Under the pieces are notes generated by a model, which saw nothing but the letters and a program-made list of their open reading frames with translations, was not told the DNA's origin and did no database searches. From Eledone cirrhosa (taxonomy: Eukaryota), in contig OZ024758.1 in assembly GCA_964016885.1 (NCBI GenBank), positions 32,054,001-32,118,000 of the forward strand: a stretch of 64,000 nt of DNA, read 5' to 3'. Position 1 is the stretch's first letter. The number at the start of each line of letters is the position of its first letter. The translations under genes and the position numbers were made by a program. This document shows positions 1,197 through 43,859 of this stretch, piece by piece.

Positions 1197-3700
1197 CAGA
1201 GTAATTCGTGGTAGAGGGATCGGTCAGTAGGAATGTGTCTGAACGTGTGTGGGGGATATTTTAACATGTTAAAAGATACTTTTCAGCTCTTGTCTTATAC
1301 GGAGAAGTGTGTGTGTACGTGTGTGTGTGTGTATATGTCTCTTTTTATGTTAGTGTACGCGTGTGTATGTGGGTGTGTATATATGTGTGTGTGTGTGTGT
1401 GTATGTGTGTATATATGTGTGTGTGTGGGTGGGTGGACCAGTATTTTTGTGATACTGGTAAAAATGGTGTACATTATTCGATATTTTCAGTAAAAACGAT
1501 TCTCTCAATAGAACATCAAAAACCTTAATAATAAAAGGTGTGAAATGATATATAGTATTGTCATAACACGAAGGTGTGTGTGAGTGTCCAGATTGTACGT
1601 ACTGCAAGGGGAATCCATTAGGCCCTGCCGTATTGGAATACTTGTGTACAAATATGTATGTGCCCATCAGTGTGCAATGCATGTGTGTGTGTCGGCATGT
1701 TTATATCTATAGACATCAAAAGGTATGCAAATTGGTGTATATTTGTGTTGCACCATAGAACATGTGTGTTTACGTATGTCATTGTGTTTATATGTGGGTA
1801 GAGATGTATGTAGGATGTATGCTGATGTAGGTATGTATGTTGACGTGAGTATGTTGTGGGTTCGTCTTAGGGAGAAGTGTTTAGACGGAGTCCGTATTTG
1901 TTAATAAAGTGAGATTCCTTGCTGATGCGCTGGGTGTAGGTGGCATTATCTTTAAATTTGTAGAGGGGAAAGATTCTGAAGTTGGGATGATTTTGGGCGG
2001 CACAGGTATCAATGTGTTCACTCAGTGGTATTTTCCTGTATTCCCGTATTTTAATTTGGGATCTATGGACAGTCATGCGTTGGCGGAGGCTGTTTTTGGT
2101 CTGGCCTATGTATTGTTCTCGACAACCTGAGCAAGTTAATACATATATTAGATTTTCTGATGCGCATGTGAAATTGTGTTTTACTATAAAACGTTGTCCT
2201 TCTTTGAAATAGAATTCCGAACCCTCTATTAGGTTGATGCATATGTCACAGTTGGGTCTATCGCATTTTTTTTACTGTGGGTTTCGTTGTTGTGGTTGGC
2301 AGTACTTTGGCATGTGTTAGGATGTTTTTCGTTGACTTAGGTTGTCTTTTGCTCTTTATGATATCGTGTGTTCTTAGGATTTGGTTCATTCTGTGATGTT
2401 CTGGAGGATGGTGTCAAAGGCCTCATTGTTGAGGGGGTTGTGTGTGGAGATGTATGGAAGAGCTTTTAGTTTCGGTTGATTTACTTTAGGGTGTCTAAGG
2501 TCTTGGGTACTGAGTTTTAGGGCACGTTGTCAATTAGTGATGCAGGGTAGTGCCTGCCTATGAGTGTGTCCTTTAGTTCTTGTAGCCGTAAGTAACAGGT
2601 GTTTTTATTGGAGACTATAGTACAGATTCTCTTGGCTAAGTTGTAGGGAATATTAATTTTAACGTATCTAGGGTGGCAAGAGTTGAAAGGAAGATATTGC
2701 TTGGAGTCTGTGGGCTTGTAGTATATGTCTGTTTTTATTTTTTTGTTATGAATCTTAATGAGGATGTCGAGGAAGGGGAGTTGTTGATGGCTGTATTCCA
2801 TCGTAAAGTTAATATTCGTGTTGAGGCCATTTATAAGGTTGTGAAATTCTTTAAGTTTCTCGATGTTTTCGTGCCAAAGGATGAAGCAGTCATCGAGATA
2901 TCGCTTCCAGTTCCTTTCTATGTGTAAGTGGAGAGTGTTTCCAAATTTGTTTAGTACTTTAGCGTAGAGGGTGATTTCCAGGTATCCCATGACTAGGTTG
3001 GCATAAGTAGGGGCTGTTTTCGTTCCCATAGCGGTCCCAGATTTCTGCCTGTAGGATTTGTTATTGAAAACGAAGTAATTGTCCTCCAAGATAAATTTGA
3101 GTCCCTCTATCACGAATTCTTTTTTGATGCGTTGTGGGAGTTCATTGTGGTAATTATCCAGCCAGAATTGGATAGCTTCTATTCCTAGGTTGTGGGGGAT
3201 GTTGGAGTATAGGTTGACTACATCGAACGTCACTAGTAGGGTTTGTTCAGAAAGGGGAATATTAGGGAGGTGATTGAGCATATCTAGGTCGTCCCTTATA
3301 TAGCTTTTGATGTGTTTGAGAAAAGGCTTGAGAAGGGTATCAATGAAGTTGCTAAGGCGGTGGGTTTCGCAAGCGGAGCCTGCTATTATAGGTCTTAATT
3401 TGAGATCTTTGGGTGAGGGGACATTGATGACTATGTCTGTGGCTTCCTTGCATGCCTTACTTATTAATTCGCTTTTATGTACTTTAGGGATACCGCAGAA
3501 AAGGCTGGATTTACTTGTGAAGTCTGTGATGAAGCTGAATTCCTTGTTAGTGAGTCTTTCTTTGTATTGGTTAATCAGAGTTTTTAGGTTTCTCATAATT
3601 TTCTGTTGATTGTAGTGTTCAGCCTTTTCGTAGTATGTTTCGTTTTCCAAAGTGGAGAGCGCTAAGTTGATATAGAATTCTGTCTCCATTAGGACTACTG
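600..3700 (-). mobile_element. Penelope-like retroelement (RT + GIY-YIG), 5'-truncated and frameshifted, with long microsatellite-containing 3' region
   Basis: ORF 2517-3689 has PLE RT motifs (LRPIIAG, TFDVVNLYSNI, GTAMGTKTAPTYANL, WKRYLDDCF, LPFLD, DIYYKPTD). GIY-YIG remnant at ~1867-2210 (YIGQTKNSLRQRMTVHR). The 3' boundary is approximate; a decayed hammerhead-like motif lies at ~697-735. Confidence 0.85.
2517..3689 (-). pseudogene. Penelope-type reverse transcriptase (partial)
   Basis: RT motifs as above. Truncated at its 5' side near a (TA)n tract and frameshifted before the endonuclease. Confidence 0.85.
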
Positions 3701-3731
3701 TACTCCCTTTATCAGCCTCTTTAATTGTAAT

Positions 3732-3909: not shown

Positions 3910-4087
3910 AAATGTAAGTATGTATGTATACGTACATACATATATGTATACAGACGTACAGTAGTATGTATATATATACATAGATGCACACATATATATA
4001 TGTGTGCATGTATGTATGTATATACATACTACTGTACGTCTGTATACATATATGTATGTACGTATACATACATACATACTTACATTT
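3910..4087. repeat. imperfect foldback inverted repeat of TA/CA-rich sequence
   Basis: aaatgtaagtatgtatgtatacgtacatacatatatgtatacagacgtacagtagtatg is mirrored by catactactgtacgtctgtatacatatatgtatgtacgtatac...tacttacattt. It abuts the LINE 5' truncation point. Confidence 0.75.
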
Positions 4088-4088
4088 T

Positions 4089-4728
4089 ACGGTACTGAAA
4101 TATGCAGATGACATCAAGCTGTACCTTGAAATCAAAAGGACTGATCCTGAAATCTACAACTCTTTCCTACAATCAGACCTGGACACAATGCAGCAATGGA
4201 TCACAGACTGGCAACTGAAGCTGGACAAGTGTACCACCATACATTTTGGGAGGAAAAATCCAGCGTCCACATACTCCCTCTACAACACTGATATCAAGAA
4301 GTCCTCTTGTGAACGTGACCTGGGCATTACTGTCAGCAGAAATTTGCGTTGGACAAAGCATGTCTCTAAGATTGTCAAGAAGGCCCAGAGTGTCTTGGCA
4401 TCACTCAGCAAGACCTTTGTTAGCCGCTCTCCAGCCATCTATTTAAAACTGTATACAGCTATGGTACGACCACACTTGGAATTCGCATCATCAGTCTGGA
4501 ACCCCTATCTTGCTCAGAACATTGACCTCATGGAAACTGTTCAGAGACGTGCAACCAAGCGCATACCCTCCATCAGACACCTACCATACTCTGAACGCCT
4601 TGCTTCCCTGGGCATGGATTCATTGAAGCTCCGACGTCTGGCAATGGACTTGGTAAATACCCACAAAGTTATTAACCATCTCGCCAATTGCAACCCTGAG
4701 CACCTTTTTGATCTCCATGTGTCTAACA
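4089..4728 (+). mobile_element. CR1-group LINE, 5'-truncated ORF2 (RT C-terminal part), left flank of the viral insert
   Basis: YADDIKLY...ERDLGITV...LYTAMVRPHLEFASSVWNPY...ETVQRRATK. Nearly identical to the copy at 42898-43536. Confidence 0.9.
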
Positions 4729-4808
4729 GTGATTATCCCATTCCCACCCCTTTCGTCTATAATACAATGTAATAATAATCCGATGGTGTGGGAATGGGAT
4801 AATCACTG
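4727..4808. repeat. stem-loop at the left edge of the viral insert (candidate terminal hairpin/origin)
   Basis: cagtgattatcccattcccac (4727-4747) is the exact reverse complement of gtgggaatgggataatcactg (4788-4808). The loop is 40 nt. Confidence 0.85.
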
Positions 4809-4900
4809 CTGACCATTGATCACACTGGTATAAGAGGTGCCTGGTATAGTATTTTTAACCGATGACAGCGATGTGGTTTGATAGTTAACTAAAATCTCCC

Positions 4901-4934
4901 TATATAATAAGAAAAATATCGTAAAACCATCAGT
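4901..4934 (+). promoter_or_regulatory. putative VP core promoter: TATA box + TCAGT initiator immediately before the VP ATG
   Basis: TATATAA at 4901-4907 and TCAGT at 4930-4934 (~30 nt spacing), with ATG at 4935. A direct repeat ctggtata occurs at 4825 and 4841. Confidence 0.65.
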
Positions 4935-6779
4935 ATGCCGAGTACTCGCAAACGGAAGAAGCCTCCCGAAGAGAAACCAGGACCATCAAAGGAATATCAC
5001 GCACCAGGATACGATTTCCTTGGCCCAGGTACTGATATCAAAAAGAAAAAATATTGGGTACCACGTAATAAGCTAGACCAAGCAGCCAAAGAACACGATA
5101 TCGCCTATGAAAATAAAGACATCAGAACCTGGTACGCAGATAAAAAATTCATCGGAGAGGCTGTTAAATCCGGACCTACAGGTATACTCGCAGCAGCAGC
5201 AATCGGAGCTAAGCATTATCTGGGACTCGATTCATATTTTCGAGGTTGTCCTACCGATACTGTTGATTCTTGCGGGGCTGCTACTATGGCTGGGATGGAG
5301 ACGGACGCGGAGACTGAGAGAGCTGATGGAGGAGGTGGATGGACGGGTACACAACATGGTTCATCCGCCCAAATACCTACCCCGACTGGACCCTATCAAA
5401 GAGAGGTTACATTTACAAGAAAATTCCTTAATGTAGTTAAATCTCAGAATATGAACACTGCAACGGGAACATTTACGAGTATCAAACAGGCCGGAGATAA
5501 CCAACCCAAAATCAAAGATCTCATGACAAGAGGAGTCTGTAAATCGCAGGACTTCCTGGTTCCCTATTGGTTAACTACATGGGTTAAACCAATCGAATGG
5601 GAGGCGCAATTGAGTATGGCTACATCGTATCGTGTTAAAGATATGGGATTTAAGATATCAAACATAACATGCTCAGAGTGGATAGTAGCGAGAGGAGAAG
5701 ACCAATTCATCAACAATCCATTACCATATTTCCAAATATATATAGACAGAGGAAAGTATATTGGATACAACAATCTAAGAGGGATATCACATATACCAAA
5801 CGATGGCTTCCAACTCATACATCCCACTACTGTTAACGACCTACTATTACCAACATACGAATACTTTTACATGTGTAATAAACAAGTATTACTGGATATG
5901 GGACAAACATTTGAAAACGATGCGACAACTATAGAAATGCGAAAGCTACACGACTGGAGAGGATTATATGATGTCAAAGAGATTCGGCAAGGTGATACTT
6001 TCGTACATCGATGGCGCAACCATTCACAATTAACACATCCTCTCACCAATACAGAATGGAACGGAAATGTAATAATGCACGGTAATATACTAAACAGCGG
6101 AAAGTTTGCTAACAATCATCATCAAGCTGTAGGTAGTATATTAACTGGAGATGGAGGTCTAAATGTTACATCAGCGCCATATGGAGGAACATCATTCGAA
6201 AAAGGAGCCGGATGGTTAGATTATCAAAACCCCAGGACAATAACCCGATTAGGATGGATGGAGGATAACGCAATGACTGAATATAACGAAATGGGAATGA
6301 ACTACCAATGTATCAGAGAATCGACCACGGTACCCGGCGATTATGAGGGTGCCTCGGGAATATACACCGTGGCAAACAGAACACTAATAAATAACGTTTT
6401 GTACACGTCAGAAGACCCGCCAGAGATGATACTGATTAACGTACCAGTGAAAGTTAACGGTAATAATACACTGCAGACATTAATGTTTCAAATGGAAATT
6501 GAATACTTTATGACGATTGAGGCAGATTACGATCAACTGAACCACCCACAAATAATACAAACAACCAATGTAAATGCGTCACGTATGCAAAACACAGACA
6601 AGGAATATAGATACGATCTTCATAGTGTAACCGATCCTGGCAGACACTTTCATGGACACAGAGTCAAACACGCACAACACGGCAGAACTTTAGACGTGGG
6701 CGATAAAGATAGTCCTTATATTTATAAGGACTATCTTTATCGCCCACGTCTAAAGTTCTGCCGTGTTGTGCGTGTTTGA
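4935..6779 (+). CDS. VP1: parvovirus-like capsid protein VP1 with N-terminal phospholipase A2 domain
   Basis: Uninterrupted 614-aa ORF. Basic NLS-like TRKRKK, PLA2 Ca-loop PGYDFLGPGT, catalytic DQAAKEHDIAY, Gly-rich DGGGGWTG after a second Met in strong context (actATGg, 5286), and jelly-roll-like YRVKDMGFKISNI. Confidence 0.88.
   Translation: MPSTRKRKKPPEEKPGPSKEYHAPGYDFLGPGTDIKKKKYWVPRNKLDQAAKEHDIAYENKDIRTWYADKKFIGEAVKSGPTGILAAAAIGAKHYLGLDSYFRGCPTDTVDSCGAATMAGMETDAETERADGGGGWTGTQHGSSAQIPTPTGPYQREVTFTRKFLNVVKSQNMNTATGTFTSIKQAGDNQPKIKDLMTRGVCKSQDFLVPYWLTTWVKPIEWEAQLSMATSYRVKDMGFKISNITCSEWIVARGEDQFINNPLPYFQIYIDRGKYIGYNNLRGISHIPNDGFQLIHPTTVNDLLLPTYEYFYMCNKQVLLDMGQTFENDATTIEMRKLHDWRGLYDVKEIRQGDTFVHRWRNHSQLTHPLTNTEWNGNVIMHGNILNSGKFANNHHQAVGSILTGDGGLNVTSAPYGGTSFEKGAGWLDYQNPRTITRLGWMEDNAMTEYNEMGMNYQCIRESTTVPGDYEGASGIYTVANRTLINNVLYTSEDPPEMILINVPVKVNGNNTLQTLMFQMEIEYFMTIEADYDQLNHPQIIQTTNVNASRMQNTDKEYRYDLHSVTDPGRHFHGHRVKHAQHGRTLDVGDKDSPYIYKDYLYRPRLKFCRVVRV
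5107..5436 (+). CDS. putative overlapping (+1 frame) small membrane protein
   Basis: 109-aa ATG-initiated ORF inside VP with a hydrophobic segment IFEVVLPILLILAGLLLWLGW followed by RRTRR. Expression is unproven. Confidence 0.4.
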   Translation: MKIKTSEPGTQIKNSSERLLNPDLQVYSQQQQSELSIIWDSIHIFEVVLPILLILAGLLLWLGWRRTRRLRELMEEVDGRVHNMVHPPKYLPRLDPIKERLHLQENSLM

Positions 6780-6788
6780 CTCTGTGTC
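6655..6788. repeat. perfect 66-bp-arm palindrome (2-nt loop) between VP and NS1; candidate parvoviral telomere
   Basis: 6655-6720 gacacagagtc...agtccttata is the exact reverse complement of 6723-6788 tataaggact...gactctgtgtc. Confidence 0.92.
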
Positions 6789-6840
6789 AGGAGCGGCCAC
6801 TTCGTTAACAAGTAAGATTGTAACTTACAACTGAACGGAC

Positions 6841-8290
6841 ATGGACCAAGATCAGAAGCAGAAGTTCAACGACGAATTCTTTAATGACGCCACCAACATC
6901 AAGGGAACCACGGCCTACACTTGGGTCTACAGATGGCAAGAACCTAATGAGTTTACGTGGGCGGAGATAAATCTATTCAAGAGACCGTCTGAGACTATAA
7001 ATTATAAACCATTCAAAGAAGAACATTCGCTACTTTTCAGACTGTTGTGTACATTCACATCTATTGTTGTCTACCACCCTAAAGGACCTTCACGTATAAA
7101 ACATTGCGACGATGTGGATCACTTTCACATCATATCTTGGCATACGTCTCACCCAACTAATCAACACAGCTTTCTTAAGCTAAAAAGACTGTTACAAATG
7201 AACGATCCTAAACACCAATATGAGATGAAGGCGGCCAAAATTGAATCACCAGCTGGCTTTGCCGAATACCTACAAAAATATGACGTCATAGCTTGCAATG
7301 ATATCAAAACAACAGGGCAGAGAAAGATGTTAGCAACCATAACTAAGCAAGAGATGATGTCAGTACCGGTAGAGGATACAACCACTAACATTAAGACAAA
7401 CGATACAGTACGTGGCAACAAATTTAATTTCGTGAAAGACCTAATGAGCAAGTGCAACTCAACAGATCTTGGCGACATTATAAATTTCGTTTGTACTATC
7501 GGTAAAGACAAGTACGGACATGCATGGGACTCTGTCTATAGAAACACTCCTAATCTTTCATCACTACTACAACCAGCAGCAACCCAACTACAAATAGAAA
7601 ACCGGATCACGCCCATATGGGAGCAGATACAGGAGAAAAGACTAATGCTTGGCAGCGATGGTAATAGGTATTGGACTGTAAACACAAGTCTTGCGATATA
7701 TGAACAATGGTGTGCATTTCACCAGATTAATCATGTAAGATTTGCGAAGGACCTGTTTGACGTGTGTCACAAAATCCTACCGAAAAAAAAACAGTCTACA
7801 TATCACCGGAATACCAAACAGCGGCAAAAGTTATCTCCTAAGGAGTATTAGAAATGGACTTATGAACTGTGGCAGAATGCGATGCCAGGCCAGTGATAAT
7901 TTTACATTTGGGACCTGTATCGATAAAACACTAATATTTACCGATGAAATGTGGTTCACGAACATAAACATAGAAGAGGCGAAATGTATACTAGAAGGTA
8001 CTGAGACGTATGTCAATATTAAACATCAGCAAGAACGCATTCTGCACAGAACACCATGCATAAGTACTGGAAATTCGAACCCATGGGATAGAGTGATGCA
8101 AGATGAAAAAGCGTTAAGAGCAAGAATGTTCATCTACACTACCAACTCGGAGATGATAAAACTGAAAGAATGGGGACAAAAGGAGTTAAATCCTATGATG
8201 TGGTTGACTATATGGAGAGATTACATAAAGGAATACACTGCATCCTTTAAAACCCTCATGCTTCCCGAAATACGCCAAAACTACACCTGA
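6841..8290 (+). CDS. NS1: parvovirus-like NS1/Rep (HUH endonuclease + SF3 helicase); one +1 frameshift in an A9 run; last 17 aa LINE-derived
   Basis: HUH motif DHFHIISW and tyrosine motif EYLQK. After removing one A at 7783-7791 it reads PKKNSLHITGIPNSGKS (Walker A), LIFTDE (Walker B), AKCILEG...VNIKH (B'), PCISTGN (C) and ALRAR (Arg finger). Repaired length is 482 aa. Confidence 0.88.
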
Positions 8291-8432
8291 TGTACCCCTT
8301 CCATACACATGCACACATGTGTGTATCATGACTCGTGCACTGTTCATTTTCCTGATGTTTGTGCATTGCCCTATGTACTGTACATGCACTTTTTGATGAG
8401 TTGTGGTGCACCTGGGCACTGTACACAATATT

Positions 8433-8488
<56 letters not shown>

Positions 8489-8609
8489 ATATCATGACTC
8501 ATACACTGTTCATTTTCCTGACATTTGTACATTGTTCTGTGTACTATACATGCACCTTTGATGAGTTGTAGTGCACCTGAGCACTGAACACAATAATTTC
8601 ATTATTATT

Positions 8610-8610
<1 letters not shown>
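8235..8610 (+). mobile_element. CR1-group LINE 3' end (ORF2 C-terminus, 3' UTR, (ATT)n tail, partial 3' UTR duplication), right flank of the viral insert
   Basis: acactgcatcctttaaaaccctcatgcttcccgaaatacgccaaaactacacctga... matches 43660-43859 and the minus-strand copy at 9430-9840. Confidence 0.9.
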
Positions 8611-8644
<34 letters not shown>

Positions 8645-10507: not shown

Positions 10508-11766
10508 GATAAATCTACCAAGAGTTTACGGTAGTGTCCAATCCGTATGAAGAACTCAATGTATTCCGGATATCATGGAAAGAAGAGATGTAATGAAAAT
10601 CCACTTTCGGTGAAAGATAAACGGTATACAGAGTCAAGATAAAATATTAAACAAATAATGAACAAACAATTCCTTATATTAAACAAAAAAAGTTCACTAT
10701 TTAACGATCGTTTCTAGGGCATATATGTGTTATAATTGGTATGCATATTTAACAGATCTATGTACAAAATTATACAAAATTATACAAATTATCAAGATTA
10801 AATATACATACCTAACTCATATATACGCCGTCTTCAGAAATAATGAAGTATATTTATTGATAATAACAACAATTCAAAATATCAGTTCAAAATTGACCAA
10901 TGAAAACACAAAGGGTTAAAAGCAGTTTGGTGTGTGTATATATATGTAAAAACCTTACACATATTTTACAATAATGTGTGTATAATTTGTATGTGTATAC
11001 TAAAAAGATGGATGTAAACACAAAATTTCAAGGTTAATATCTCTGTAAGCTTAATGCGCTGATAAGATACGCAAAGATACTTATGGAGTCAAGCATATAA
11101 ATATATTTTTTTCATACTCACACATATCAGTATAATCACATATACATGTGCGTATATGCATAAATATACACATAACCACGAACATACAAACACACACACT
11201 CCCCCACTCACATTTATATATGCGGATATAAAATCATAAGCAAATAGAAATTAAGTCACTCACATAAAACACTGGTACACACATTTCAAGATCAAGATAC
11301 AGAAATTAGGTGGGAGGGGGGGGGAGGGGTCAGTATTAGATTGTCAGACCAGACAGCCTAAAATAAATGTATCTATAAATTAAGAAAAATAAAAAAATAA
11401 AACCAATAAAATATAATAAATGTACATACACATACAGATATACATACACATACATACATGTACGCGCACATAGAGATATCTACACATACATACATACACA
11501 CATACCTATATTGTCATACACACACATACATTTACACGAACATACACATACACATATAAAAAGATATAAATACACACACACTCACGCGCAACACATACAC
11601 ACATACACATATATATATATATATATATATACATATACACATACACATATATATACACACACACATAGACTCATATATATATATATACACATATACATAC
11701 ACATATATATACAAACATATATATCCCCACACTCATACCACCATAAATATATATACAAACACCCAC

Positions 11767-11804
<38 letters not shown>

Positions 11805-12218
11805 CCACATACACACACATACACATATATATATATATATATATACACACACATACACACACATATATATATATATACACACACATATATATATATACAC
11901 ACACATATAAAAAACAGACATGCACATACATATATACATATACATACATATATTTCATTACCCTTATATATACACACAGTATATATACATACACAACCTC
12001 ACTTATACACATATACACATAAGTTATATTACAATAATAATAAAGAATAATATATATATATATATATACATATATACACACGTATATATATATACATATA
12101 CATATATATATACATACACACATACATACACATACATACATACACCTAAACATATATATATACACATAAATACACACGTACGAATAAAGACATATATTCA
12201 CACATAGACACATATATA

Positions 12219-12249
<31 letters not shown>

Positions 12250-13844
12250 ATCTATATATATACACATACATACATACATACATATACATACATATATACA
12301 CACATACACACACACACACACACACAGACACACATACACACTCACATATATATATATATATATATATATATGTGTATGTGAGTGTGCGCAAATACATATA
12401 TATATACACACACACATACAAACACACACAAACACATACATATGCATATATGCACACACACACACATATATCACATAGATACGAAGATAAACATATAAAT
12501 AGAGAGACATACGAATATATACAGAACCCATATACACATACATACAACCACGCATATACATATACATACATATATACACACATATATATTCCTATATACA
12601 AGCATACACATACATACACATATATACATACACATACACATATACTTACCACACATTCACATACACATACATATATAATATACATATATATACATACATA
12701 TACATACACATGTATGTACAATCATATATACACACTCAATCTTACATTCATATTTACATGCTCATATATGTATTTTTATATTTAGAAATAAAAACCTATA
12801 TAGACACCCTCCTACACATATATTCATACATATACTCTTACAAACACAGATGATAATAGTATGGGGGAAAGGGGGGGTTTGGAGAAGGGGATCAAAGTAA
12901 ATATATGTTTCAAGAAACATATAATATTTTCCGTATCTTAATTCAATGTATGTTCTTACATATTTTCAGTGCTAGGAAATGCGAAATCTATGCATCCCAA
13001 AATAAAAAAGTATACCATTAATCATATGTTAACTAAACCAAAGATAGTCAACATATTGATTTCCAAGGTGTAAATTAGTTAGGTTTATAATATTTGAAGC
13101 AAAATTATGAAGTCAAACAGTAGTAGATTATTAATTACATTATAACTAAATTAAAGTTAATAACGTTATGGTATCAATATTAGGAGATGAATTTAGTAAT
13201 AGGGAAAAGAAACCCAAATAAAAATAAAATAAAGTATTACATCAGTAGTAGCATATAAATTATATGTTAACTAAATTAAAAATTATATATTTATTTCAAT
13301 AGTATATGTTAATTAGTATATGTTAATTAGGTATACAATACATAAAGCAGATATTGTATTTCATCAATAGCATAATATAATTATATGCAAATAAAAATCA
13401 AAATTAATACGCATACATATACATATACATACACATACACATACATATACATATACACACATATATATATATATATACATATATATACACATACATACAT
13501 ATATATTCACATAAATATACATACAGGTACACATACAATACACACATATACATATACATATAGATATACAAATCTTTTTCAAAAAATTGCACAGAATATA
13601 TTAACTAGGTATATATCCAAAACACATCCCATTCTATGATTACATGACATTCTGCAATTCGTCTGTACAAGGATACTAATTTTAAGCAAATTAAAATTAA
13701 AGTTTTAGGTTGATTAAAACTAAAACCAAATAATAAATATATTTCCAAAATGTATATTAATTAGGTCTATAATACTAAAAATTCTTTCTCCGTCATAGGA
13801 TACAAGATATTATTTTGTTATATTTTATCTGTAAAAGAATTATA

Positions 13845-13880: not shown

Positions 13881-16222
13881 ATAATAAAAGGTTAAAATAA
13901 ATTAAAATTAATCTATAAATTAAATTACTGAGTATATATTGGTAATATTTAAAGGTTTTTCAAAATTTATTATTACAAAATATTTTCTCATCTGTAATAA
14001 AATATTAATTAAATTAAATTTATATGTTAACTAACATTTAAATTAAATTAAATTCTAGAATAATGTTATTAATTAGGTTTATAATATTTAAATGTTTTTT
14101 TTAGTTTATGATTACACGATATAATTAATTCCTGTCTTTTATTTAATAAGATATCCCTAGACTTCATTATTTCAAATAGTTCTTGGGAACATAATCTACA
14201 TTCCTTTCTATTATTTTGATAAGGGGTGGCTCTTTTGAGCACACTCCAGGTCAAATCATATTTTATATTTTTATTTTTATAACTATTTATTTTTTCTGCT
14301 AGAGATGTTGTATTAGCCAGTGCAGCATTTTTAAAGCTATGTTTGTGGGTATTATACCTTGTCTTAAAATTGTTAGAGGTAGCTCCTATATATGAGCAAA
14401 TAGAATCTTTAGTTTTAACATTACATTTATAGACTATGTTGTTAACAAGACAATTCCCTTTTAATGGGCAGTTTGTTTTGTTTCTACAGTTACATCCTTT
14501 CGTTAATTCTGTATTTGAGGAGATATTATTGTTAATTTGATGTACTGGTGGTATACTTATGGTTTTCTTACATTTATATGCATTATATGCACTTATATTT
14601 TGTTTTATGTTATTTGTTGTAGAGTATGAGAATTTAACTGTAGACCTATTTAAGATTTGATGGTATTTGTGGTTTGGCGGGAAGTTTTTCTCAAGGATAT
14701 AAAAAAATTTTTTAGCAATATTATCCTTAACTTGTAAATTAAAAGGAGCATTATACCAAGTAACTCGTCTATTACGGTTTCTATGTTGTTTATTATTTTT
14801 ATTATTTTTATATGTTGTATCATGATTTTTACTAGGAGGATTAATGTTAATGATCTCACCACAACTATTTTTAGTTATATTTGTAGATTTAGGTGTTTTA
14901 TCTTTTTTATTAGGAGTTTTATTATTAATATTTATTATAGTCGTATGATGAGTAGTTTTTTGAGGGTTACTATACTTTATATTAGAAGATTTAGTATTTT
15001 GGGGTATACTGTGGGTGGCATTTAGGTGTGTACTTTTCATTTGGCGTTTGTTGGTAATATTATGCTGTATGCTTTCAGTATTTTTAGTAGAAGGTATATA
15101 CTCTAATCTATTTTTGTGGCCACTTCTATCTAGAGCTTCATTATAAAAGGTCGCATTTTTATCAAATACATCTTGGTTAGAAGAAAGGTTAGAAATTCTA
15201 AGTGATATATTATATGCAAGGTTTTTAAGGATAGATTTAGGGTGATTAGATTGTGAGTGTATGTAATGTAAGTTTTGGTTAGGTTTATGGTAAGGTTGGT
15301 ATATACCCGTAGCTAAATCTAAAGTTATATCTAGGAAATTTACTACTTTACTTGTTTTTTCAAAAGTAATATTAAGATTATAATAGTCTTTAAGGAAAGT
15401 TCTAATATGCTTTTTGTTTTTTTCGATTTCTGAAAGGCTAAGGTTGTTAGAAAGAAGAAGACAGTCATCACGATATAAACCACCTTTGAGGTGGGGAAAA
15501 GAGGCATTTATGTTGAAAAGGAGAAAGAGGCCCACAAGATCAGTAATTTGGGCGGAATCGCTTGAACCCATAGTAATATCAAAAAGATTACTGTAAGTGT
15601 TTCTGGTCCAGTACTCATTCTGAAATTCAATAAGTGTTTGTCTAGCATGTATAATAATGTTAATGTCATCCGAAGTTAAATTAGATCTATTTTTAGCAAA
15701 TATTAATGCTTTGTTCAGGAGTATGGGTGATATAGAAGAATAGTAATTATCTATATCAAATTGTATGAAAGAAGTAGAAGATTTACACCTAATATTTTTA
15801 AACCAATTAATTACCTGGGAGGTGTTTTCCCAGAGTGGTAAAATAACGTATTTTCTTATTTGTGGGATGACTCTATCTAAAATTTTTTTGCTAATTATTC
15901 CAATATCTGATTTGGAGGGACATATAAGTCTAATAGAAGGATTAGAGTTAAAGTTAGATTTGTGATCTTTCAGGTTGAAGTGTGGACTTTTCAAAGCCAA
16001 AGGTTCAGTTCTATCTTCAATATTTAGTTTTTTTACTATGTTGTGTGTTTTGTTGTTGATGTTGGTGAGTGACACATTATTAGATTTTTTATAACTTTTT
16101 CTGAGTTCTTTATATATGAACTCATTATAATGTTCAATATCCATATGATACAAGTTACCAGTTTTGTCCGAGTGGACATGGATTTTTTTAGACTTTTTTA
16201 GGTCCAATAGGGTAGAATCAAG
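10502..16222 (-). mobile_element. Naiad-like Penelope element, copy A (5'-truncated, inverted)
   Basis: Reverse complement of the 21593-27185 unit plus ~140 bp of the next unit. Contains the RT+GIY-YIG ORF 14069-16207 and a ~3.5-kb microsatellite-rich 3' region. Confidence 0.9.
14069..16207 (-). CDS. Penelope-like RT + GIY-YIG endonuclease (N-terminally truncated, otherwise open, 712 aa)
   Basis: SDKTGNLY, RLICPSKSDIG, FIQFDIDNYYSSI, FDITMGSSDSAQITDLVGLF, GLYRDD, NFLDITLDL, CNCRNKTNCPLKGNC, IVYKC...SYIGAT, CRLC, SCNH. Confidence 0.88.
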   Translation of the reverse strand: MDLKKSKKIHVHSDKTGNLYHMDIEHYNEFIYKELRKSYKKSNNVSLTNINNKTHNIVKKLNIEDRTEPLALKSPHFNLKDHKSNFNSNPSIRLICPSKSDIGIISKKILDRVIPQIRKYVILPLWENTSQVINWFKNIRCKSSTSFIQFDIDNYYSSISPILLNKALIFAKNRSNLTSDDINIIIHARQTLIEFQNEYWTRNTYSNLFDITMGSSDSAQITDLVGLFLLFNINASFPHLKGGLYRDDCLLLSNNLSLSEIEKNKKHIRTFLKDYYNLNITFEKTSKVVNFLDITLDLATGIYQPYHKPNQNLHYIHSQSNHPKSILKNLAYNISLRISNLSSNQDVFDKNATFYNEALDRSGHKNRLEYIPSTKNTESIQHNITNKRQMKSTHLNATHSIPQNTKSSNIKYSNPQKTTHHTTIININNKTPNKKDKTPKSTNITKNSCGEIININPPSKNHDTTYKNNKNNKQHRNRNRRVTWYNAPFNLQVKDNIAKKFFYILEKNFPPNHKYHQILNRSTVKFSYSTTNNIKQNISAYNAYKCKKTISIPPVHQINNNISSNTELTKGCNCRNKTNCPLKGNCLVNNIVYKCNVKTKDSICSYIGATSNNFKTRYNTHKHSFKNAALANTTSLAEKINSYKNKNIKYDLTWSVLKRATPYQNNRKECRLCSQELFEIMKSRDILLNKRQELIISCNHKLKKTFKYYKPN

Positions 16223-17771
16223 AAATCGAAAAAAACAAAAAGCATATTAGAACTTTCCTTAAAGACTATTATAATCTTAATATTACTTTTGAAAAAACAA
16301 GTAAAGTAGTAAATTTCCTAGATATAACTTTAGATTTAGCTACGGGTATATACCAACCTTACCATAAACCTAACCAAAACTTACATTACATACACTCACA
16401 ATCTAATCACCCTAAATCTATCCTTAAAAACCTTGCATATAATATATCACTTAGAATTTCTAACCTTTCTTCTAACCAAGATGTATTTGATAAAAATGCG
16501 ACCTTTTATAATGAAGCTCTAGATAGAAGTGGCCACAAAAATAGATTAGAGTATATACCTTCTACTAAAAATACTGAAAGCATACAGCATAATATTACCA
16601 ACAAACGCCAAATGAAAAGTACACACCTAAATGCCACCCACAGTATACCCCAAAATACTAAATCTTCTAATATAAAGTATAGTAACCCTCAAAAAACTAC
16701 TCATCATACGACTATAATAAATATTAATAATAAAACTCCTAATAAAAAAGATAAAACACCTAAATCTACAAATATAACTAAAAATAGTTGTGGTGAGATC
16801 ATTAACATTAATCCTCCTAGTAAAAATCATGATACAACATATAAAAATAATAAAAATAATAAACAACATAGAAACCGTAATAGACGAGTTACTTGGTATA
16901 ATGCTCCTTTTAATTTACAAGTTAAGGATAATATTGCTAAAAAATTTTTTTATATCCTTGAGAAAAACTTCCCGCCAAACCACAAATACCATCAAATCTT
17001 AAATAGGTCTACAGTTAAATTCTCATACTCTACAACAAATAACATAAAACAAAATATAAGTGCATATAATGCATATAAATGTAAGAAAACCATAAGTATA
17101 CCACCAGTACATCAAATTAACAATAATATCTCCTCAAATACAGAATTAACGAAAGGATGTAACTGTAGAAACAAAACAAACTGCCCATTAAAAGGGAATT
17201 GTCTTGTTAACAACATAGTCTATAAATGTAATGTTAAAACTAAAGATTCTATTTGCTCATATATAGGAGCTACCTCTAACAATTTTAAGACAAGGTATAA
17301 TACCCACAAACATAGCTTTAAAAATGCTGCACTGGCTAATACAACATCTCTAGCAGAAAAAATAAATAGTTATAAAAATAAAAATATAAAATATGATTTG
17401 ACCTGGAGTGTGCTCAAAAGAGCCACCCCTTATCAAAATAATAGAAAGGAATGTAGATTATGTTCCCAAGAACTATTTGAAATAATGAAGTCTAGGGATA
17501 TCTTATTAAATAAAAGACAGGAATTAATTATATCGTGTAATCATAAACTAAAAAAAACATTTAAATATTATAAACCTAATTAATAACATTATTCTAGAAT
17601 TTAATTTAATTTAAATGTTAGTTAACATATAAATTTAATTTAATTAATATTTTATTACAGATGAGAAAATATTTTGTAATAATAAATTTTGAAAAACCTT
17701 TAAATATTACCAATATATACTCAGTAATTTAATTTATAGATTAATTTTAATTTATTTTAACCTTTTATTAT

Positions 17772-17807: not shown

Positions 17808-19402
17808 TATAATTCTTTTACAGATAAAATATAACAAAATAATATCTTGTATCCTATGACGGAGAAAGAATTTTTAGTATTATAGACCTAATTAATATAC
17901 ATTTTGGAAATATATTTATTATTTGGTTTTAGTTTTAATCAACCTAAAACTTTAATTTTAATTTGCTTAAAATTAGTATCCTTGTACAGACGAATTGCAG
18001 AATGTCATGTAATCATAGAATGGGATGTGTTTTGGATATATACCTAGTTAATATATTCTGTGCAATTTTTTGAAAAAGATTTGTATATCTATATGTATAT
18101 GTATATGTGTGTATTGTATGTGTACCTGTATGTATATTTATGTGAATATATATGTATGTATGTGTATATATATGTATATATATATATATATGTGTGTATA
18201 TGTATATGTATGTGTATGTGTATGTATATGTATATGTATGCGTATTAATTTTGATTTTTATTTGCATATAATTATATTATGCTATTGATGAAATACAATA
18301 TCTGCTTTATGTATTGTATACCTAATTAACATATACTAATTAACATATACTATTGAAATAAATATATAATTTTTAATTTAGTTAACATATAATTTATATG
18401 CTACTACTGATGTAATACTTTATTTTATTTTTATTTGGGTTTCTTTTCCCTATTACTAAATTCATCTCCTAATATTGATACCATAACGTTATTAACTTTA
18501 ATTTAGTTATAATGTAATTAATAATCTACTACTGTTTGACTTCATAATTTTGCTTCAAATATTATAAACCTAACTAATTTACACCTTGGAAATCAATATG
18601 TTGACTATCTTTGGTTTAGTTAACATATGATTAATGGTATACTTTTTTATTTTGGGATGCATAGATTTCGCATTTCCTAGCACTGAAAATATGTAAGAAC
18701 ATACATTGAATTAAGATACGGAAAATATTATATGTTTCTTGAAACATATATTTACTTTGATCCCCTTCTCCAAACCCCCCCTTTCCCCCATACTATTATC
18801 ATCTGTGTTTGTAAGAGTATATGTATGAATATATGTGTAGGAGGGTGTCTATATAGGTTTTTATTTCTAAATATAAAAATACATATATGAGCATGTAAAT
18901 ATGAATGTAAGATTGAGTGTGTATATATGATTGTACATACATGTGTATGTATATGTATGTATATATATGTATATTATATATGTATGTGTATGTGAATGTG
19001 TGGTAAGTATATGTGTATGTGTATGTATATATGTGTATGTATGTGTATGCTTGTATATAGGAATATATATGTGTGTATATATGTATGTATATGTATATGC
19101 GTGGTTGTATGTATGTGTATATGGGTTCTGTATATATTCGTATGTCTCTCTATTTATATGTTTATCTTCGTATCTATGTGATATATGTGTGTGTGTGTGC
19201 ATATATGCATATGTATGTGTTTGTGTGTGTTTGTATGTGTGTGTGTATATATATATGTATTTGCGCACACTCACATACACATATATATATATATATATAT
19301 ATATATGTGAGTGTGTATGTGTGTCTGTGTGTGTGTGTGTGTGTGTATGTGTGTATATATGTATGTATATGTATGTATGTATGTATGTGTATATATATAG
19401 AT

Positions 19403-19433
<31 letters not shown>

Positions 19434-19847
19434 TATATATGTGTCTATGTGTGAATATATGTCTTTATTCGTACGTGTGTATTTATGTGTATATATATAT
19501 GTTTAGGTGTATGTATGTATGTGTATGTATGTGTGTATGTATATATATATGTATATGTATATATATATACGTGTGTATATATGTATATATATATATATAT
19601 ATTATTCTTTATTATTATTGTAATATAACTTATGTGTATATGTGTATAAGTGAGGTTGTGTATGTATATATACTGTGTGTATATATAAGGGTAATGAAAT
19701 ATATGTATGTATATGTATATATGTATGTGCATGTCTGTTTTTTATATGTGTGTGTATATATATATATGTGTGTGTATATATATATATATGTGTGTGTATG
19801 TGTGTGTATATATATATATATATATATGTGTATGTGTGTGTATGTGG

Positions 19848-19885
<38 letters not shown>

Positions 19886-21150
19886 GTGGGTGTTTGTATA
19901 TATATTTATGGTGGTATGAGTGTGGGGATATATATGTTTGTATATATATGTGTATGTATATGTGTATATATATATATATGAGTCTATGTGTGTGTGTATA
20001 TATATGTGTATGTGTATATGTATATATATATATATATATATATGTGTATGTGTGTATGTGTTGCGCGTGAGTGTGTGTGTATTTATATCTTTTTATATGT
20101 GTATGTGTATGTTCGTGTAAATGTATGTGTGTGTATGACAATATAGGTATGTGTGTATGTATGTATGTGTAGATATCTCTATGTGCGCGTACATGTATGT
20201 ATGTGTATGTATATCTGTATGTGTATGTACATTTATTATATTTTATTGGTTTTATTTTTTTATTTTTCTTAATTTATAGATACATTTATTTTAGGCTGTC
20301 TGGTCTGACAATCTAATACTGACCCCCCCCCCCCCCTCCCACCTAATTTCTGTATCTTGATCTTGAAATGTGTGTACCAGTGTTTTATGTGAGTGACTTA
20401 ATTTCTATTTGCTTATGATTTTATATCCGCATATATAAATGTGAGTGGGGGAGTGTGTGTGTTTGTATGTTCGTGGTTATGTGTATATTTATGCATATAC
20501 GCACATGTATATGTGATTATACTGATATGTGTGAGTATGAAAAAAATATATTTATATGCTTGACTCCATAAGTATCTTTGCGTATCTTATCAGCGCATTA
20601 AGCTTACAGAGATATTAACCTTGAAATTTTGTGTTTACATCCATCTTTTTAGTATACACATACAAATTATACACACATTATTGTAAAATATGTGTAAGGT
20701 TTTTACATATATATACACACACCAAACTGCTTTTAACCCTTTGTGTTTTCATTGGTCAATTTTGAACTGATATTTTGAATTGTTGTTATTATCAATAAAT
20801 ATACTTCATTATTTCTGAAGACGGCGTATATATGAGTTAGGTATGTATATTTAATCTTGATAATTTGTATAATTTTGTATAATTTTGTACATAGATCTGT
20901 TAAATATGCATACCAATTATAACACATATATGCCCTAGAAACGATCGTTAAATAGTGAACTTTTTTTGTTTAATATAAGGAATTGTTTGTTCATTATTTG
21001 TTTAATATTTTATCTTGACTCTGTATACCGTTTATCTTTCACCGAAAGTGGATTTTCATTACATCTCTTCTTTCCATGATATCCGGAATACATTGAGTTC
21101 TTCATACGGATTGGACACTACCGTAAACTCTTGGTAGATTTATCTACATA
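16221..21150 (+). mobile_element. Naiad-like Penelope element, copy B (5'-truncated within RT), in tandem with copy C
   Basis: Starts at agaaatcgaaaaaaac (equivalent to 22384). Includes ORF 16612-17583 and the 3' region. Mirror image of 10502-15431. Confidence 0.9.
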
Positions 21151-25603: not shown

Positions 25604-26017
25604 TATATATGTGTCTATGTGTGAATATATGTCTTTATTCGTACGTGTGTATTTATGTGTATATATATATGTTTAGGTGTATGTATGTATGTGTATGTAT
25701 GTGTGTATGTATATATATATGTATATGTATATATATATACGTGTGTATATATGTATATATATATATATATATTATTCTTTATTATTATTGTAATATAACT
25801 TATGTGTATATGTGTATAAGTGAGGTTGTGTATGTATATATACTGTGTGTATATATAAGGGTAATGAAATATATGTATGTATATGTATATATGTATGTGC
25901 ATGTCTGTTTTTTATATGTGTGTGTATATATATATATGTGTGTGTATATATATATATATGTGTGTGTATGTGTGTGTATATATATATATATATATATGTG
26001 TATGTGTGTGTATGTGG

Positions 26018-26055
<38 letters not shown>

Positions 26056-27180
26056 GTGGGTGTTTGTATATATATTTATGGTGGTATGAGTGTGGGGATA
26101 TATATGTTTGTATATATATGTGTATGTATATGTGTATATATATATATATGAGTCTATGTGTGTGTGTATATATATGTGTATGTGTATATGTATATATATA
26201 TATATATATATATGTGTATGTGTGTATGTGTTGCGCGTGAGTGTGTGTGTATTTATATCTTTTTATATGTGTATGTGTATGTTCGTGTAAATGTATGTGT
26301 GTGTATAACAATATAGGTATGTGTGTATGTATGTATGTGTAGATATCTCTATGTGCGCGTACATGTATGTATGTGTATGTATATCTGTATGTGTATGTAC
26401 ATTTATTATATTTTATTGGTTTTATTTTTTTATTTTTCTTAATTTATAGATACATTTATTTTAGGCTGTCTGGTCTGACAATCTAATACTGACCCCTCCC
26501 CCCCCCCCCCCTCCCACCTAATTTCTGTATCTTGATCTTGAAATGTGTGTACCAGTGTTTTATGTGAGTGACTTAATTTCTATTTGCTTATGATTTTATA
26601 TCCGCATATATAAATGTGAGTGGGGGAGTGTGTGTGTTTGTATGTTCGTGGTTATGTGTATATTTATGCATATACGCACATGTATATGTGATTATACTGA
26701 TATGTGTGAGTATGAAAAAAATATATTTATATGCTTGACTCCATAAGTATCTTTGCGTATCTTATCAGCGCATTAAGCTTACAGAGATATTAACCTTGAA
26801 ATTTTGTGTTTACATCCATCTTTTTAGTATACACATACAAATTATACACACATTATTGTAAAATATGTGTAAGGTTTTTACATATATATACACACACCAA
26901 ACTGCTTTTAACCCTTTGTGTTTTCATTGGTCAATTTTGAACTGATATTTTGAATTGTTGTTATTATCAATAAATATACTTCATTATTTCTGAAGACGGC
27001 GTATATATGAGTTAGGTATGTATATTTAATCTTGATAATTTGTATAATTTTGTATAATTTTGTACATAGATCTGTTAAATATGCATACCAATTATAACAC
27101 ATATATGCCCTAGAAACGATCGTTAAATAGTGAACTTTTTTTGTTTAATATAAGGAATTGTTTGTTCATTATTTGTTTAA

Positions 27181-27185
<5 letters not shown>
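21151..27185 (+). mobile_element. Naiad-like Penelope element, copy C (complete ORF region + 3' region)
   Basis: Tandem period with copy B is ~6.17 kb (17583 vs 23746; 20927 vs 27102). It ends in a (TA)n tract. The B/C boundary is nominal because the copies are contiguous. Confidence 0.9.
21305..23746 (+). pseudogene. full-length PLE polyprotein (~813 aa) with one premature stop
   Basis: N-terminal SLKNIPIPSK...FIRRVRWRA followed by RT and GIY-YIG. In-frame TGA at 22172-22174 where copy A has AGA (Arg, 15641-15643 on the minus strand). Confidence 0.85.
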
Positions 27186-43400: not shown

Positions 43401-43859
43401 GAACGCCTTGCTTCCCTGGGCATGGATTCATTGAAGCTCCGACGTCTGGCAATGGACTTGGTAAACACCCACAAAGTTATTAACCATGTCGCCAACAACA
43501 ACCCTGAGCACCTTTTTGATCTCCATATATCTAACACACGTGGACATGCCTACAAAATCAGAAAACAGCACAGCTCCCATGACTTTCGGAAACATTTTTT
43601 CAAGCTTAGAGTTGCTGAAGCATGGAACAAACTGCCTGCGTCAGTTGTTAGCTGCTGAGACACTGAATCCTTTAAAACCCTCATGCTTCCCGAAATTCGC
43701 CAAAACTACACCCTTCCATACACATGCAGACATGTGTATATCATGACTCATGCACTGTTCATTTTCCTGACGTTTGTACATTACCCTATGTACCATCCAT
43801 ACAGTTTTTGATGAGTTGTAGTGCACCTGAGCACTGTACACAATATTTTCATTATTATA
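40445..43859 (+). mobile_element. CR1-group LINE (ORF1 end, APE + RT ORF2, 3' UTR, ATT tail) nested in the RTE with an 11-bp target-site duplication
   Basis: LNARSL, VTETW, GVVYRPP, AGDFNHP, GDSDH, YLDFAKAFNSVPH, GVPQGSVLGPLLF, YADNIKL. TSD tgcatcagtct (40434-40444) / tgcaccagtct (43860-43870). Confidence 0.9.

Follow-up and report, generated by a model that had tools for sequence, protein, structure and literature searches.

In the available text of PMC11357303, all parvoviruses carry NS on the left of the genome, with VP either on the right of the same strand or on the opposite strand. In the monosense Parvovirinae (AAV, Bocaparvovirus and Erythroparvovirus B19), NS takes up the left, 5' half of the genome and VP lies to its right (PMC12298888, PMC11357303), and one-promoter-plus-splicing and multi-promoter strategies both occur in this subfamily (PMC12298888). 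The ambisense Densovirinae, such as Aquambidensovirus and Clinch densovirus 1 of mussels, include viruses of aquatic invertebrate and mollusc hosts (PMC11357303, in part). The bipartite Acheta domesticus segmented densovirus is a precedent for departure from the architecture rule, and the megaparvovirus SwaBA-MePV-1, of about 6.4 kb with four large ORFs, has a PLA2-bearing ORF ahead of NS1, although its capsid gene still lies downstream of NS1 (both from an excerpt of PMC13426907). Newly described bird-cloaca viruses have NS on the left (PMC9896142, in the part available), and a marine or unclassified group with QKE54998.1 and QTE03867.1 is placed between Parvovirinae and Densovirinae (PMC11357303, in part). 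A literature search, with most subscription papers outside its reach, returned no capsid-first monosense parvovirus. It also returned no cephalopod parvovirus among the main texts covered; PMC5013282 lists, in its supplementary tables, parvovirus-related sequences from six species of mollusc, among which there may be octopods.

We analyzed a 64,000-nucleotide stretch of the Eledone cirrhosa genome (the window; contig OZ024758.1, positions 32,054,001 to 32,118,000 of the forward strand), which contains a parvovirus-like element at positions 4727-8234, with VP followed by NS1, both on the + strand, inside a LINE. Pfam hits and reading frames agree with the preliminary description of an endogenous parvovirus-like element with the capsid ORF upstream of NS on a single strand. 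The element resembles the monosense Parvovirinae in its HUH and SF3 NS1, PLA2 VP1, terminal hairpins and single coding strand, and these viruses supply the best solved matches for both proteins (AAV2 Rep40; AAV, bocavirus and B19 capsids), but its gene order is reversed, its host is an invertebrate and capsid identity is 11-16%. With the ambisense Densovirinae it has in common the PLA2 and a VP cassette that starts at the genome end, whereas their cassettes are on opposite strands and those of the octopod element on one, its 3 convergent pairs being inverted duplicates. SwaBA-MePV-1 is likewise a divergent invertebrate lineage with both viruses and endogenous copies known (PMC13426907, in part); the octopod element differs in having the whole capsid gene before NS1 and a length of about 4 kb. 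The segmented densovirus of Acheta domesticus has NS and VP on two segments, the octopod element on one molecule. We conclude that the window very probably holds the damaged, integrated remains of a parvovirus-like virus, with octopods as its likely hosts, a linear monosense genome of about 4 kb and the native order hairpin-VP-NS1-hairpin.

Comparison with an uninterrupted LINE paralogue placed both limits of the element, 4727 and 8234, exactly where the preliminary description had put them. The left host flank (4089..4728, + strand) is the 5' portion of a LINE (RT) copy that the insertion interrupts, with 94% identity to the paralogue at window positions 42897-43536 and a weak RVT_1 match (E 0.008). 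The right flank (8235..8628, + strand) is the 3' part of the same copy, and the paralogue continues the left flank after 123 nt, at 43660-43858. The insertion cost the LINE target these 123 nt, microhomologies of 2-3 nt are present at the borders, and no target-site duplication was found against the paralogue. Read ends hanging loose at 4728 continue as LINE, and read ends also hang loose at 8235, the right border of element and LINE. The viral DNA would likely have been captured in double-strand-break repair.

The VP frame (4935..6779, + strand) is open over 614 aa, as had been claimed, and encodes a basic N-terminus, a PLA2 domain (about 4989-5114; PF08398, E 6e-10) and a glycine-rich stretch. 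Its profile matches AAV capsids in the PLA2 region (E 3e-13), and its structure model, of low confidence (pLDDT 41), matches bocavirus, AAV and B19 capsids in Foldseek (E 9e-8), to which VP is just 11-16% identical. QKE54998.1 and QTE03867.1 are, or cluster with, distant matches of the VP profile (E about 2-3e-15). VP is 38-39% identical to three Logan proteins, and the score for Atlas VP1 clusters was 0.95. The AATAAA sites of the window element all lie within VP.

NS1 starts at ATG 6841 and is composed of an N-terminal part with the HUH nuclease and a helical linker (6841..7791, + strand; HFH at 7120-7128, YLQK at 7267-7278), a frame break at an A-run (7783-7791), and an SF3 helicase truncated at 8234 (7792..8234, + strand; Walker A at 7808-7831, B and C; PF01057, E 2.5e-16), which confirmed the HUH/SF3 assignment made earlier. 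The best solved match of its profile is AAV2 Rep40 (E 1e-16), and the score for Atlas NS1 clusters was 0.97. The HFH motif is aligned and conserved in both lineages described below, and the top Foldseek matches of a low-confidence model (pLDDT 58) are the HUH initiator RepB (E 3.6e-4) and AAV2 Rep68 (E 0.04). No Pfam nuclease domain matched NS1, so support for an HUH endonuclease is moderate; a VIA-align search gave no match at Z >= 5. The N-terminal part is 88% identical to that of a related copy, L021. The element had been called near-intact but is less so: NS1 has a frame break and lacks its C-terminal part, and the right terminus is missing. The window copy is probably inert as a virus.

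At the left end, the first hairpin of the preliminary description is present (4727..4808), with a 21-bp perfect stem and an AT-rich loop (z -8.0; 0 of 200 shuffles fold as well). L024 (39 bp, z -14.5) and L034 (43 bp, z -19.4) also fold into a hairpin at the equivalent position; the fold is weak in L023 (z -1.3), L021 is cut there, and L022, L026 and L033 have none. In an alignment of 3 sequences, 10 of 32 consensus pairs are altered on both sides. We infer that this hairpin is the remnant of the viral left terminus. It is followed by a predicted promoter region (4809..4934, + strand) with the conserved motifs GACCATTG (4811) and AGAGGTG[C/T] (4833), both present in 6 of 8 lineage-A left ends, and with the anticipated TATATAA (4901-4907) and Inr TCAGT (4930-4934) directly before the VP ATG (4935). 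The TATA-Inr-ATG spacing is conserved in 6 of 8 aligned copies, and lineage-A left-end matches start at the hairpin, not in host flanks.

The second reported hairpin (6655..6788) also exists, as a 66-bp perfect palindrome (arms 6655-6720 and 6723-6788), but it sits inside the 3' end of VP and not between the genes, as had been thought. It arises from a 63-nt inverted duplication (6725-6787) that is private to the window copy (1 of 8 aligned copies), the insertion being missing from all 7 others. As a result, the 614-aa frame ends inside the insertion. The stranded C-terminal codons and stop of VP lie behind it (6789..6815, + strand) and align with the VP ends of six other copies, while the seventh, L030, diverges at the VP end. 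In the two relatives tested, the VP-end stretch folds no better than shuffles (L021, z -0.5; L022, z +0.6). Judged from these alignments, the second hairpin is a copy-specific fold-back insertion inside VP, not a viral end. The repair event that captured the viral DNA, or a template switch just before, would likely have created it and cost the copy its right end. Fold-back palindromes abound in this genome, host repeats included (window 3914-4079; L025, L027 and L033), and each one taken singly might therefore have arisen by repair.

Our survey took in 44 stretches of this genome, which together include every one of the 29 NS1 and 28 PLA2 Pfam hits, and 41 of the 44 had hits. The copies belong to two lineages, A (that of the window) and B, which are only about 25% identical and are separated (100/100) in a tree whose taxa include no classified parvovirus. 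VP is followed by NS of the same lineage in 28 neighbouring pairs, 18 of which are clean VP-end/NS-start junctions within 80 nt (4 of lineage A and 14 of lineage B, 5 of the latter near-identical). In relatives, the VP stop and the NS start are about 17-60 nt apart; the lineage-B spacer is 51-57 nt in 13 of the 14 clean junctions and 80 nt in one, and no hairpin lies ahead of NS in 7 of 8 aligned copies. No same-lineage junction of an NS end with a VP start was found among the 44 stretches: the 7 NS-to-VP neighbours are 3 same-lineage pairs, all internal fragments, and 4 cross-lineage pairs, and the 3 convergent pairs stem from inverted duplications. The positional evidence comes from one host assembly throughout. 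The VP-NS junction is thus not unique to the window, which the preliminary description had named as a sign of a one-off rearrangement, and since the order recurs across the genome it is likely to be the virus's own layout and no accident of insertion.

Comparison of the window VP with 9 copies gave dN/dS values of 0.095-0.149 in 6 computable pairs, 3 being saturated; NS synonymous sites were saturated in 10 of 10 comparisons. By these estimates the copies have diverged under purifying selection (dN/dS about 0.1), which argues that they likely integrated independently. The copies L032, L034 and L047/48, with a VP identity of 38-45%, also form their own NS clade (100/98), indicating that VP and NS co-vary. 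Most sub-lineages are single-copy, and in lineage B one family counts at least 7 near-identical units, spread over 4 contigs (VP pS 0.006-0.009). Proteins named from Octopus vulgaris and O. bimaculoides match lineage-B NS at 61% and 72% identity and nest among the E. cirrhosa copies in the tree, in support of the earlier suggestion of a mollusc host. The earlier suggestion of an undescribed lineage is also supported. Intact VP relatives are encoded on Logan contigs of 3.8-4.5 kb. Scans of IMG/VR and JGI metagenome contigs with VP, NS-A and NS-B queries yielded no confirmed relative and no free viral genome. A search of sequencing runs listed no RNA data set among the holders, which has no bearing on expression.

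Lineage-B left hairpins were found in L036 (an 808-nt head-to-head palindrome), L038, L039 and L044, and a right end in L035 (a 1018-nt tail-to-tail palindrome). The motif TGCACTG...CCGG..(GGGA)n is inverted at both ends in L035/L036 and L044, and is also present at the right end of L051. Lineage-A right-end hairpins were observed in L047 (z -10.3) and L021 (z -4.9, a fold with AT repeats and an unstable centroid), the right ends of this lineage resting on 2-3 copies. The sets upstream of VP and downstream of NS have no viral sequence in common (blastn, E 1e-3). In natural related copies, one left and one right hairpin bracket the two cassettes. The hairpins upstream of VP and downstream of NS, together with the head-to-head and tail-to-tail junctions, suggest a linear hairpin-VP-NS-hairpin genome, and its linearity and length of about 4 kb are inferred from these natural copies. 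NS1 would nick origin motifs beside each hairpin and drive rolling-hairpin replication, and the head-to-head and tail-to-tail palindromes of lineage B resemble what may be captured replicative intermediates.

In lineage A, VP would be expressed from the terminal promoter, starting at the ATG directly behind the Inr, and NS1 from an internal promoter with a TATA-like box that overlaps the final codons of VP; this box coincides with conserved codons. In lineage B, there would be a single left promoter; NS1 would be made from RNA in which an 18-codon leader exon is spliced over the entire VP gene, and VP would be read from unspliced RNA. The predicted leader exon and donor position were found at 15 places, with GT intact in 13 (9 distinct copies, 7 intact), in a census that chose loci by the exon start pattern. 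The predicted acceptor, a pyrimidine tract and a phase-0 CAG situated five codons ahead of the NS body, is present in 10 of 10, and the first NS Met is replaced by Leu in 6 of 9. VP of lineage B is predicted from these signals to lie inside an NS1 intron. No leader exon or conserved acceptor of this type was seen by eye in the aligned copies of lineage A. The predicted leader peptide starts no protein compared, nor would gene calling on DNA contigs be expected to yield such a protein.

A circular virus, or one replicating through a circle with a single origin hairpin, would give the VP-NS order as a permutation opened at the origin. The copies do start at a hairpin, the loop of the window hairpin contains the nonamer TATTATTAC on the minus strand (4769-4777), which we take to be a nanovirus-type origin motif, and an Atlas PLA2-capsid cluster is mostly Cressdnaviricota (score 0.89, a lead only). 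However, the left and right hairpins are distinct, with inverted common motifs, and the upstream and downstream sets do not match; same-lineage junctions are head-to-head or tail-to-tail and never head-to-tail, the nonamer is not retained in L023 or L024, and NS is closest to parvoviral Rep/NS1. This reading is very unlikely and already largely refuted. It is highly unlikely that the copies represent a parvovirus-derived mobile element of octopod genomes, a virus-like transposon and not an infectious virus: the presence of > 40 stretches in one genome, the near-identical lineage-B family and the blank viral and metagenome scans would fit, but the PLA2 capsid is under purifying selection, the ends are ragged with target deletion and no target-site duplication, relatives are found on genome-sized stand-alone contigs, and most sub-lineages are single-copy.

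The preliminary description had offered models of its own. A standard NS-VP genome that was circularised or concatemerised and opened once between NS and VP, with the other copies as host duplicates, agrees with concatemer-like lineage-B pieces (L035, L036 and L038), yet it is extremely improbable, because a head-to-tail junction needs two termini and a promoter where only the short spacer is found, the second hairpin is no terminus, and the order recurs in 18 clean junctions across two lineages, with purifying selection acting as their copies diverged. That ambisense arms, or two hairpin-bearing segments, were joined head to tail at integration is barely conceivable. Cross-lineage co-integration does occur (L021, L026), and the VP cassette resembles that of ambisense densoviruses in having a terminal promoter with the ATG just after the Inr. 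Against this, 7 of 8 aligned copies have no hairpin in front of NS, the lineage-B spacer is fixed, and the predicted lineage-B NS1 exons flank VP. The ambisense model falls with the second hairpin, a copy-specific insertion and not a terminus; of the remaining proposal, the genuinely new architecture is upheld by the recurrent order and the bipartite genome is not, both cassettes lying between one left and one right hairpin. There may have been an ancient inversion in the virus's ancestry. An assembly artefact has practically no chance of explaining the order: no single unitig covers the whole element, but a 1506-nt Logan unitig covers 6759-8264, and with it the VP-NS1 junction that the preliminary description wanted checked for misassembly, with 0 differences and 0 gaps. 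The unitig breaks, at 6684 and 6759, are those expected from a 66-bp inverted repeat, over which depth is raised. The A and B junctions of L021 are also bridged with 0 differences; these unitigs derive from one sample's runs, possibly the source of the assembly itself. The order moreover recurs on many contigs. RAD-seq reads of three other samples gave nil or trace coverage of the viral stretches, which is uninformative for libraries of reduced representation.

The virus that we reconstruct, linear and capsid-first, has the Parvoviridae traits of an SF3 NS1, an N-terminal HUH and a PLA2 capsid with a parvovirus capsid-fold match (in the pLDDT-41 model), and two cassettes between terminal hairpins are seen in related copies, the window copy being without its right end. 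In place of a left-hand NS with VP to its right or on the other strand, it has VP on the left and NS on the right of one strand, and it is therefore filed as parvovirus-like, in no existing subfamily. Membership in the Cressdnaviricota was rejected on the two different ends, the lack of a same-lineage head-to-tail junction and the non-conserved nonamer; in the ambisense Densovirinae, on NS and VP being on the same strand; and in a bipartite group of the Acheta type, on the lack of a terminus between VP and NS in 7 of 8 copies and the short fixed spacer.

Hairpins within endogenous copies can be repair products and call for caution. The copies nevertheless keep termini and replication junctions that metagenomes usually miss, and they connect many unnamed public sequences with a host group. 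Flipping a known parvovirus genome cannot give a capsid-first order on the same strand, so this would be a third plan. We consider it fairly probable that octopods host an undescribed, subfamily-level parvovirus radiation with this capsid-first monosense plan, in which lineage A has an internal NS promoter in the VP tail and lineage B has VP inside an NS1 intron, and whose virus perhaps still circulates and enters the germ line, as suggested by the near-identical lineage-B copies with perfect kilobase palindromes. The plan raises the question of how the switch from early (NS) to late (VP) expression is made with the capsid gene next to the terminal promoter, to which lineage B predicts a clean answer in the form of a splice that spans the entire capsid gene. 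The finding is of relevance to parvovirus taxonomy, octopus health and aquaculture.

The element at 4727-8234 of the window begins with a left hairpin (4727-4808, 21-bp stem, z -8.0), followed on the + strand by TATATAA at 4901, TCAGT at 4930 and, from an ATG at 4935, a capsid (VP) frame of 614 amino acids with a PLA2 domain (PF08398, E 6e-10). NS starts at 6841 on the same strand, with HFH and YLQK motifs followed by an SF3 helicase (PF01057, E 2.5e-16). The coordinates and Pfam matches bear out the preliminary description of a first hairpin, a TATA/Inr, an open PLA2 capsid ORF and an HUH/SF3 NS1, all on the + strand. The further description as a near-intact genome holds for the gene content but not for the NS end: the NS frame is broken at an A-run (7783-7791), beyond which the helicase frame continues, and the copy contains neither the NS C-terminus nor the right end. 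Comparison with an uninterrupted paralogue at 42897-43858 showed that one LINE copy is split into both flanks, and that 123 nt of the LINE target were replaced by the virus with microhomology of 2-3 nt and without duplication of the target. In one sample, possibly the assembly's own source, Logan unitigs matched 6759-8264 with no differences and no gaps, and broke at 6684 and 6759, as predicted by a 66-bp inverted repeat. Thus, the VP-NS junction, the frame break and the palindrome are present in the reads, and the unitigs spanning the junction without differences speak against a misassembly.

The surrounding host sequence contains a further fold-back, an 83-bp palindrome (96%) in TA/CA-rich sequence just 5' of the LINE (3914-4079). 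Microsatellite-rich sequence is present as large inverted and repeated duplications (11379-12782 / 18870-20273, about 20650-21150, and 25775-27185), which adjoin RT frames at 2517-3730, 14072-17580 and 21254-23743, which we take to be of the Penelope-like type.

A second hairpin, with perfect 66-bp arms at 6655-6720 and 6723-6788, had been regarded as a viral terminus. Two models were built on it: a standard genome, circularised or joined head-to-tail, was opened between NS1 and VP, or the two arms of an ambisense genome were rejoined head-to-tail. Among eight copies aligned at the VP end, a 63-nt insertion at 6725-6787 was present in the window copy only, and is followed at 6789-6815 by codons and a stop matching the VP C-terminus of the relatives. 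The equivalent stretch in two other copies folded no better than shuffles (L021, z -0.5; L022, z +0.6). The second hairpin is a scar confined to the window copy and not a viral terminus, and both models thereby lose their basis.

Another alternative is that the gene order reflects a one-off rearrangement, in which case the junction would be unique. Searching the 3.0-Gb host genome at the DNA level returned 53 matches, and Pfam searches yielded at least 29 NS1 and at least 28 PLA2 places; all of these Pfam places were fetched. The copies fall into two lineages, A (including the window) and B, which are 20-30% identical to each other and receive a tree support of 100/100. Adjacent unlike genes were classed by order, strand and lineage in 44 stretches, 41 with viral matches and the remaining three being host target-site controls. 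In this census, VP preceded NS in 28 same-lineage pairs and one cross-lineage pair. Clean junctions from VP end to NS start of at most 80 nt were observed in 18 of the 28 (4 in A and 14 in B, five of the latter near-identical), and the junction is thus not unique. NS preceded VP in three same-lineage pairs, every one between internal fragments, and in four cross-lineage pairs. Inverted duplicates gave rise to the three convergent pairs, and the window was classed as divergent owing to its inverted arm. The A and B junctions of L021 were also spanned by unitigs. For the window VP compared with nine copies, dN/dS was 0.095-0.149 in six pairs, with saturation in three, and NS synonymous sites were saturated in 10 of 10 comparisons. 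The divergence among copies is that of genomes under selection, a pattern that host duplication of a single rearranged insertion cannot yield. We consider it highly probable that a capsid-first order is the lineage's native layout.

Between the window (4935-8233) and L021, 73/185 four-fold sites differ in VP, and 57/91 and 29/37 in two parts of NS, even though the NS protein is better conserved than VP. This contrast suggests that lineage-A viruses have exchanged VP and NS cassettes by recombination.

In lineage A, the TATA, Inr and VP ATG are in register in six of eight aligned left ends. A conserved NS ATG is located 17-60 nt 3' of the VP stop, and the final codons of VP coincide in part with a TATA-like box. 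In two more distant copies (L032 and L034), the VP-NS spacer is longer and contains a GC box; a clear TATA is also present in L032. The simplest reading is that NS would be transcribed from a predicted internal promoter, although codon conservation could mimic the box. In lineage B, an 18-codon leader exon with a donor a few bases 5' of the VP ATG was found in 15 places, the GT being intact in 13 (seven of nine distinct copies). A predicted acceptor with a pyrimidine tract and CAG lies in phase 0 five codons 5' of the NS body (10/10), and the first NS methionine is changed to leucine in six of nine. As predicted from sequence, NS1 of lineage B would arise by splicing across the entire VP gene.

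Among the lineage-A left ends compared, a hairpin at the equivalent position was observed in L024 (39 bp) and L034 (43 bp), was weak in L023 and cut in L021, and was not seen in L022, L026 or L033. In an alignment of three sequences, on which the count depends, 10 of 32 consensus pairs were changed on both sides. Located 3' of NS in L047 is a long hairpin (z -10.3), with arms carrying the left-end motif GACCATTG; the hairpin 3' of NS in L021 is decayed (z -4.9). In lineage B, the left hairpins of L038, L039 and L044 are unpaired at the centre. Palindromes run through the left end of L036 (808 nt, head-to-head) and the right end of L035 (1018 nt, tail-to-tail). The motif TGCACTG...CCGG..(GGGA)n is present at both lineage-B ends, inverted relative to each other, and its variant agrees between the two ends within one sub-lineage. 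Regions upstream of VP and downstream of NS gave no viral sequence match to each other at blastn E 1e-3. Since fold-backs also occur in host repeats of the same genome, the case for termini rests on shared motifs and position rather than on single palindromes. Rolling-hairpin replication of a linear hairpin-ended genome yields head-to-head and tail-to-tail junctions, and the lineage-B palindromic junctions would be products of such a genome.

Four of the lineage-B stretches (L035, L036, L038 and L039, on contigs C998, C10, C14 and C5) represent a family of at least seven near-identical units whose VP frames are open and whose palindromic junctions, 0.8-1.0 kb long, are near-perfect; the units are likely to be very recent integrations. 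By eye, the loop 3' of the B right-end motif (L051 about 7530-7560, and L044) resembles that of the A left hairpin (window 4760-4787), the likeness being AATACAATG...AATAATAA.CCGAT. Inside the right end of four diverged B copies (L041, L051, L044 and L040), a short GC-rich hairpin and then a T-run come directly after the stop and poly(A) signal of NS; this arrangement could serve as an element for termination or 3' processing. Lineage-A right ends have GGC[GG]CCATGACAC in common (L047 4460-4690, L021 3480-3680, L034 about 6290-6320); L047 and L021 also share AAGATGGCG, presumably a YY1-like site.

At about 9,072,000-9,088,700 of G000:C12, B, A and B units (L040, L021, L030) and fragments form a tandem array, all on one strand, within ORF1 of an apparent Tx1/L1-type retrotransposon, as typed by eye. 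Between the units are repeats of a 36-nt piece of the target; five of the eight genomic matches to this piece are at this locus, and further lineage-A fragments lie at about 8.975-8.998 Mb. Either a complex capture of several viruses or a piRNA-cluster-like hotspot could account for the locus. Elsewhere, NS coding pieces are expanded to long tandem arrays within two copies (L023 5283-6177, L052 1451-4611), and a C2H2 zinc-finger array adjoins another (L026 2-610); such arrays are expanded in octopods.

The window VP has four relatives at 38-40% identity, all unnamed Logan proteins, three of them (P0001-P0003) full-length on contigs of 3.8-4.5 kb; lineage-A NS has ten at 46-60%. A further intact relative, P0169, is encoded on a public contig of 5.2 kb. 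A VP profile search recovered 171 representatives at E up to 1e-10. Look-ups of 30 proteins gave names for three clusters, of which one was an Octopus vulgaris protein and two were capsids labelled "Parvoviridae sp.". Proteins attributed to O. vulgaris and O. bimaculoides share 61% and 72% identity with lineage-B NS and nest among the host-genome copies in the tree, which points to an octopod host. The related public proteins P0026 (VP) and P0174 (NS) are each on an ENA contig of 4017 nt, possibly one and the same contig. Solved-structure matches were AAV Rep40, B19V NS1 and AAV capsids. Low-confidence structure models matched parvovirus capsids (VP) and HUH initiators (NS), and no VIA-align match reached Z 5. 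No confirmed relative emerged from scans of IMG/VR and JGI contigs.

No capsid-first monosense parvovirus was found in the literature searched, most subscription papers being outside its coverage. According to PMC11357303, NS is on the left in all parvoviruses; PMC12298888 and PMC9896142 also describe NS on the left. PMC13426907 describes six subfamilies and mono-, ambisense and bipartite genomes; the bipartite parvovirus is a cricket virus. One lineage in PMC13426907 has a PLA2 ORF 5' of NS1 with the capsid still 3' of NS1, whereas in the present element the whole capsid gene is upstream. Parvovirus-related sequences from six molluscs are reported in PMC5013282, the main text of which does not contain the word "octopus", and its supplements may bear on prior reports. 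The element resembles parvoviruses in its HUH/SF3 initiator, PLA2 capsid and hairpin ends but departs from their NS-left layout. Because of this departure, it is provisionally filed as parvovirus-like, in no subfamily.
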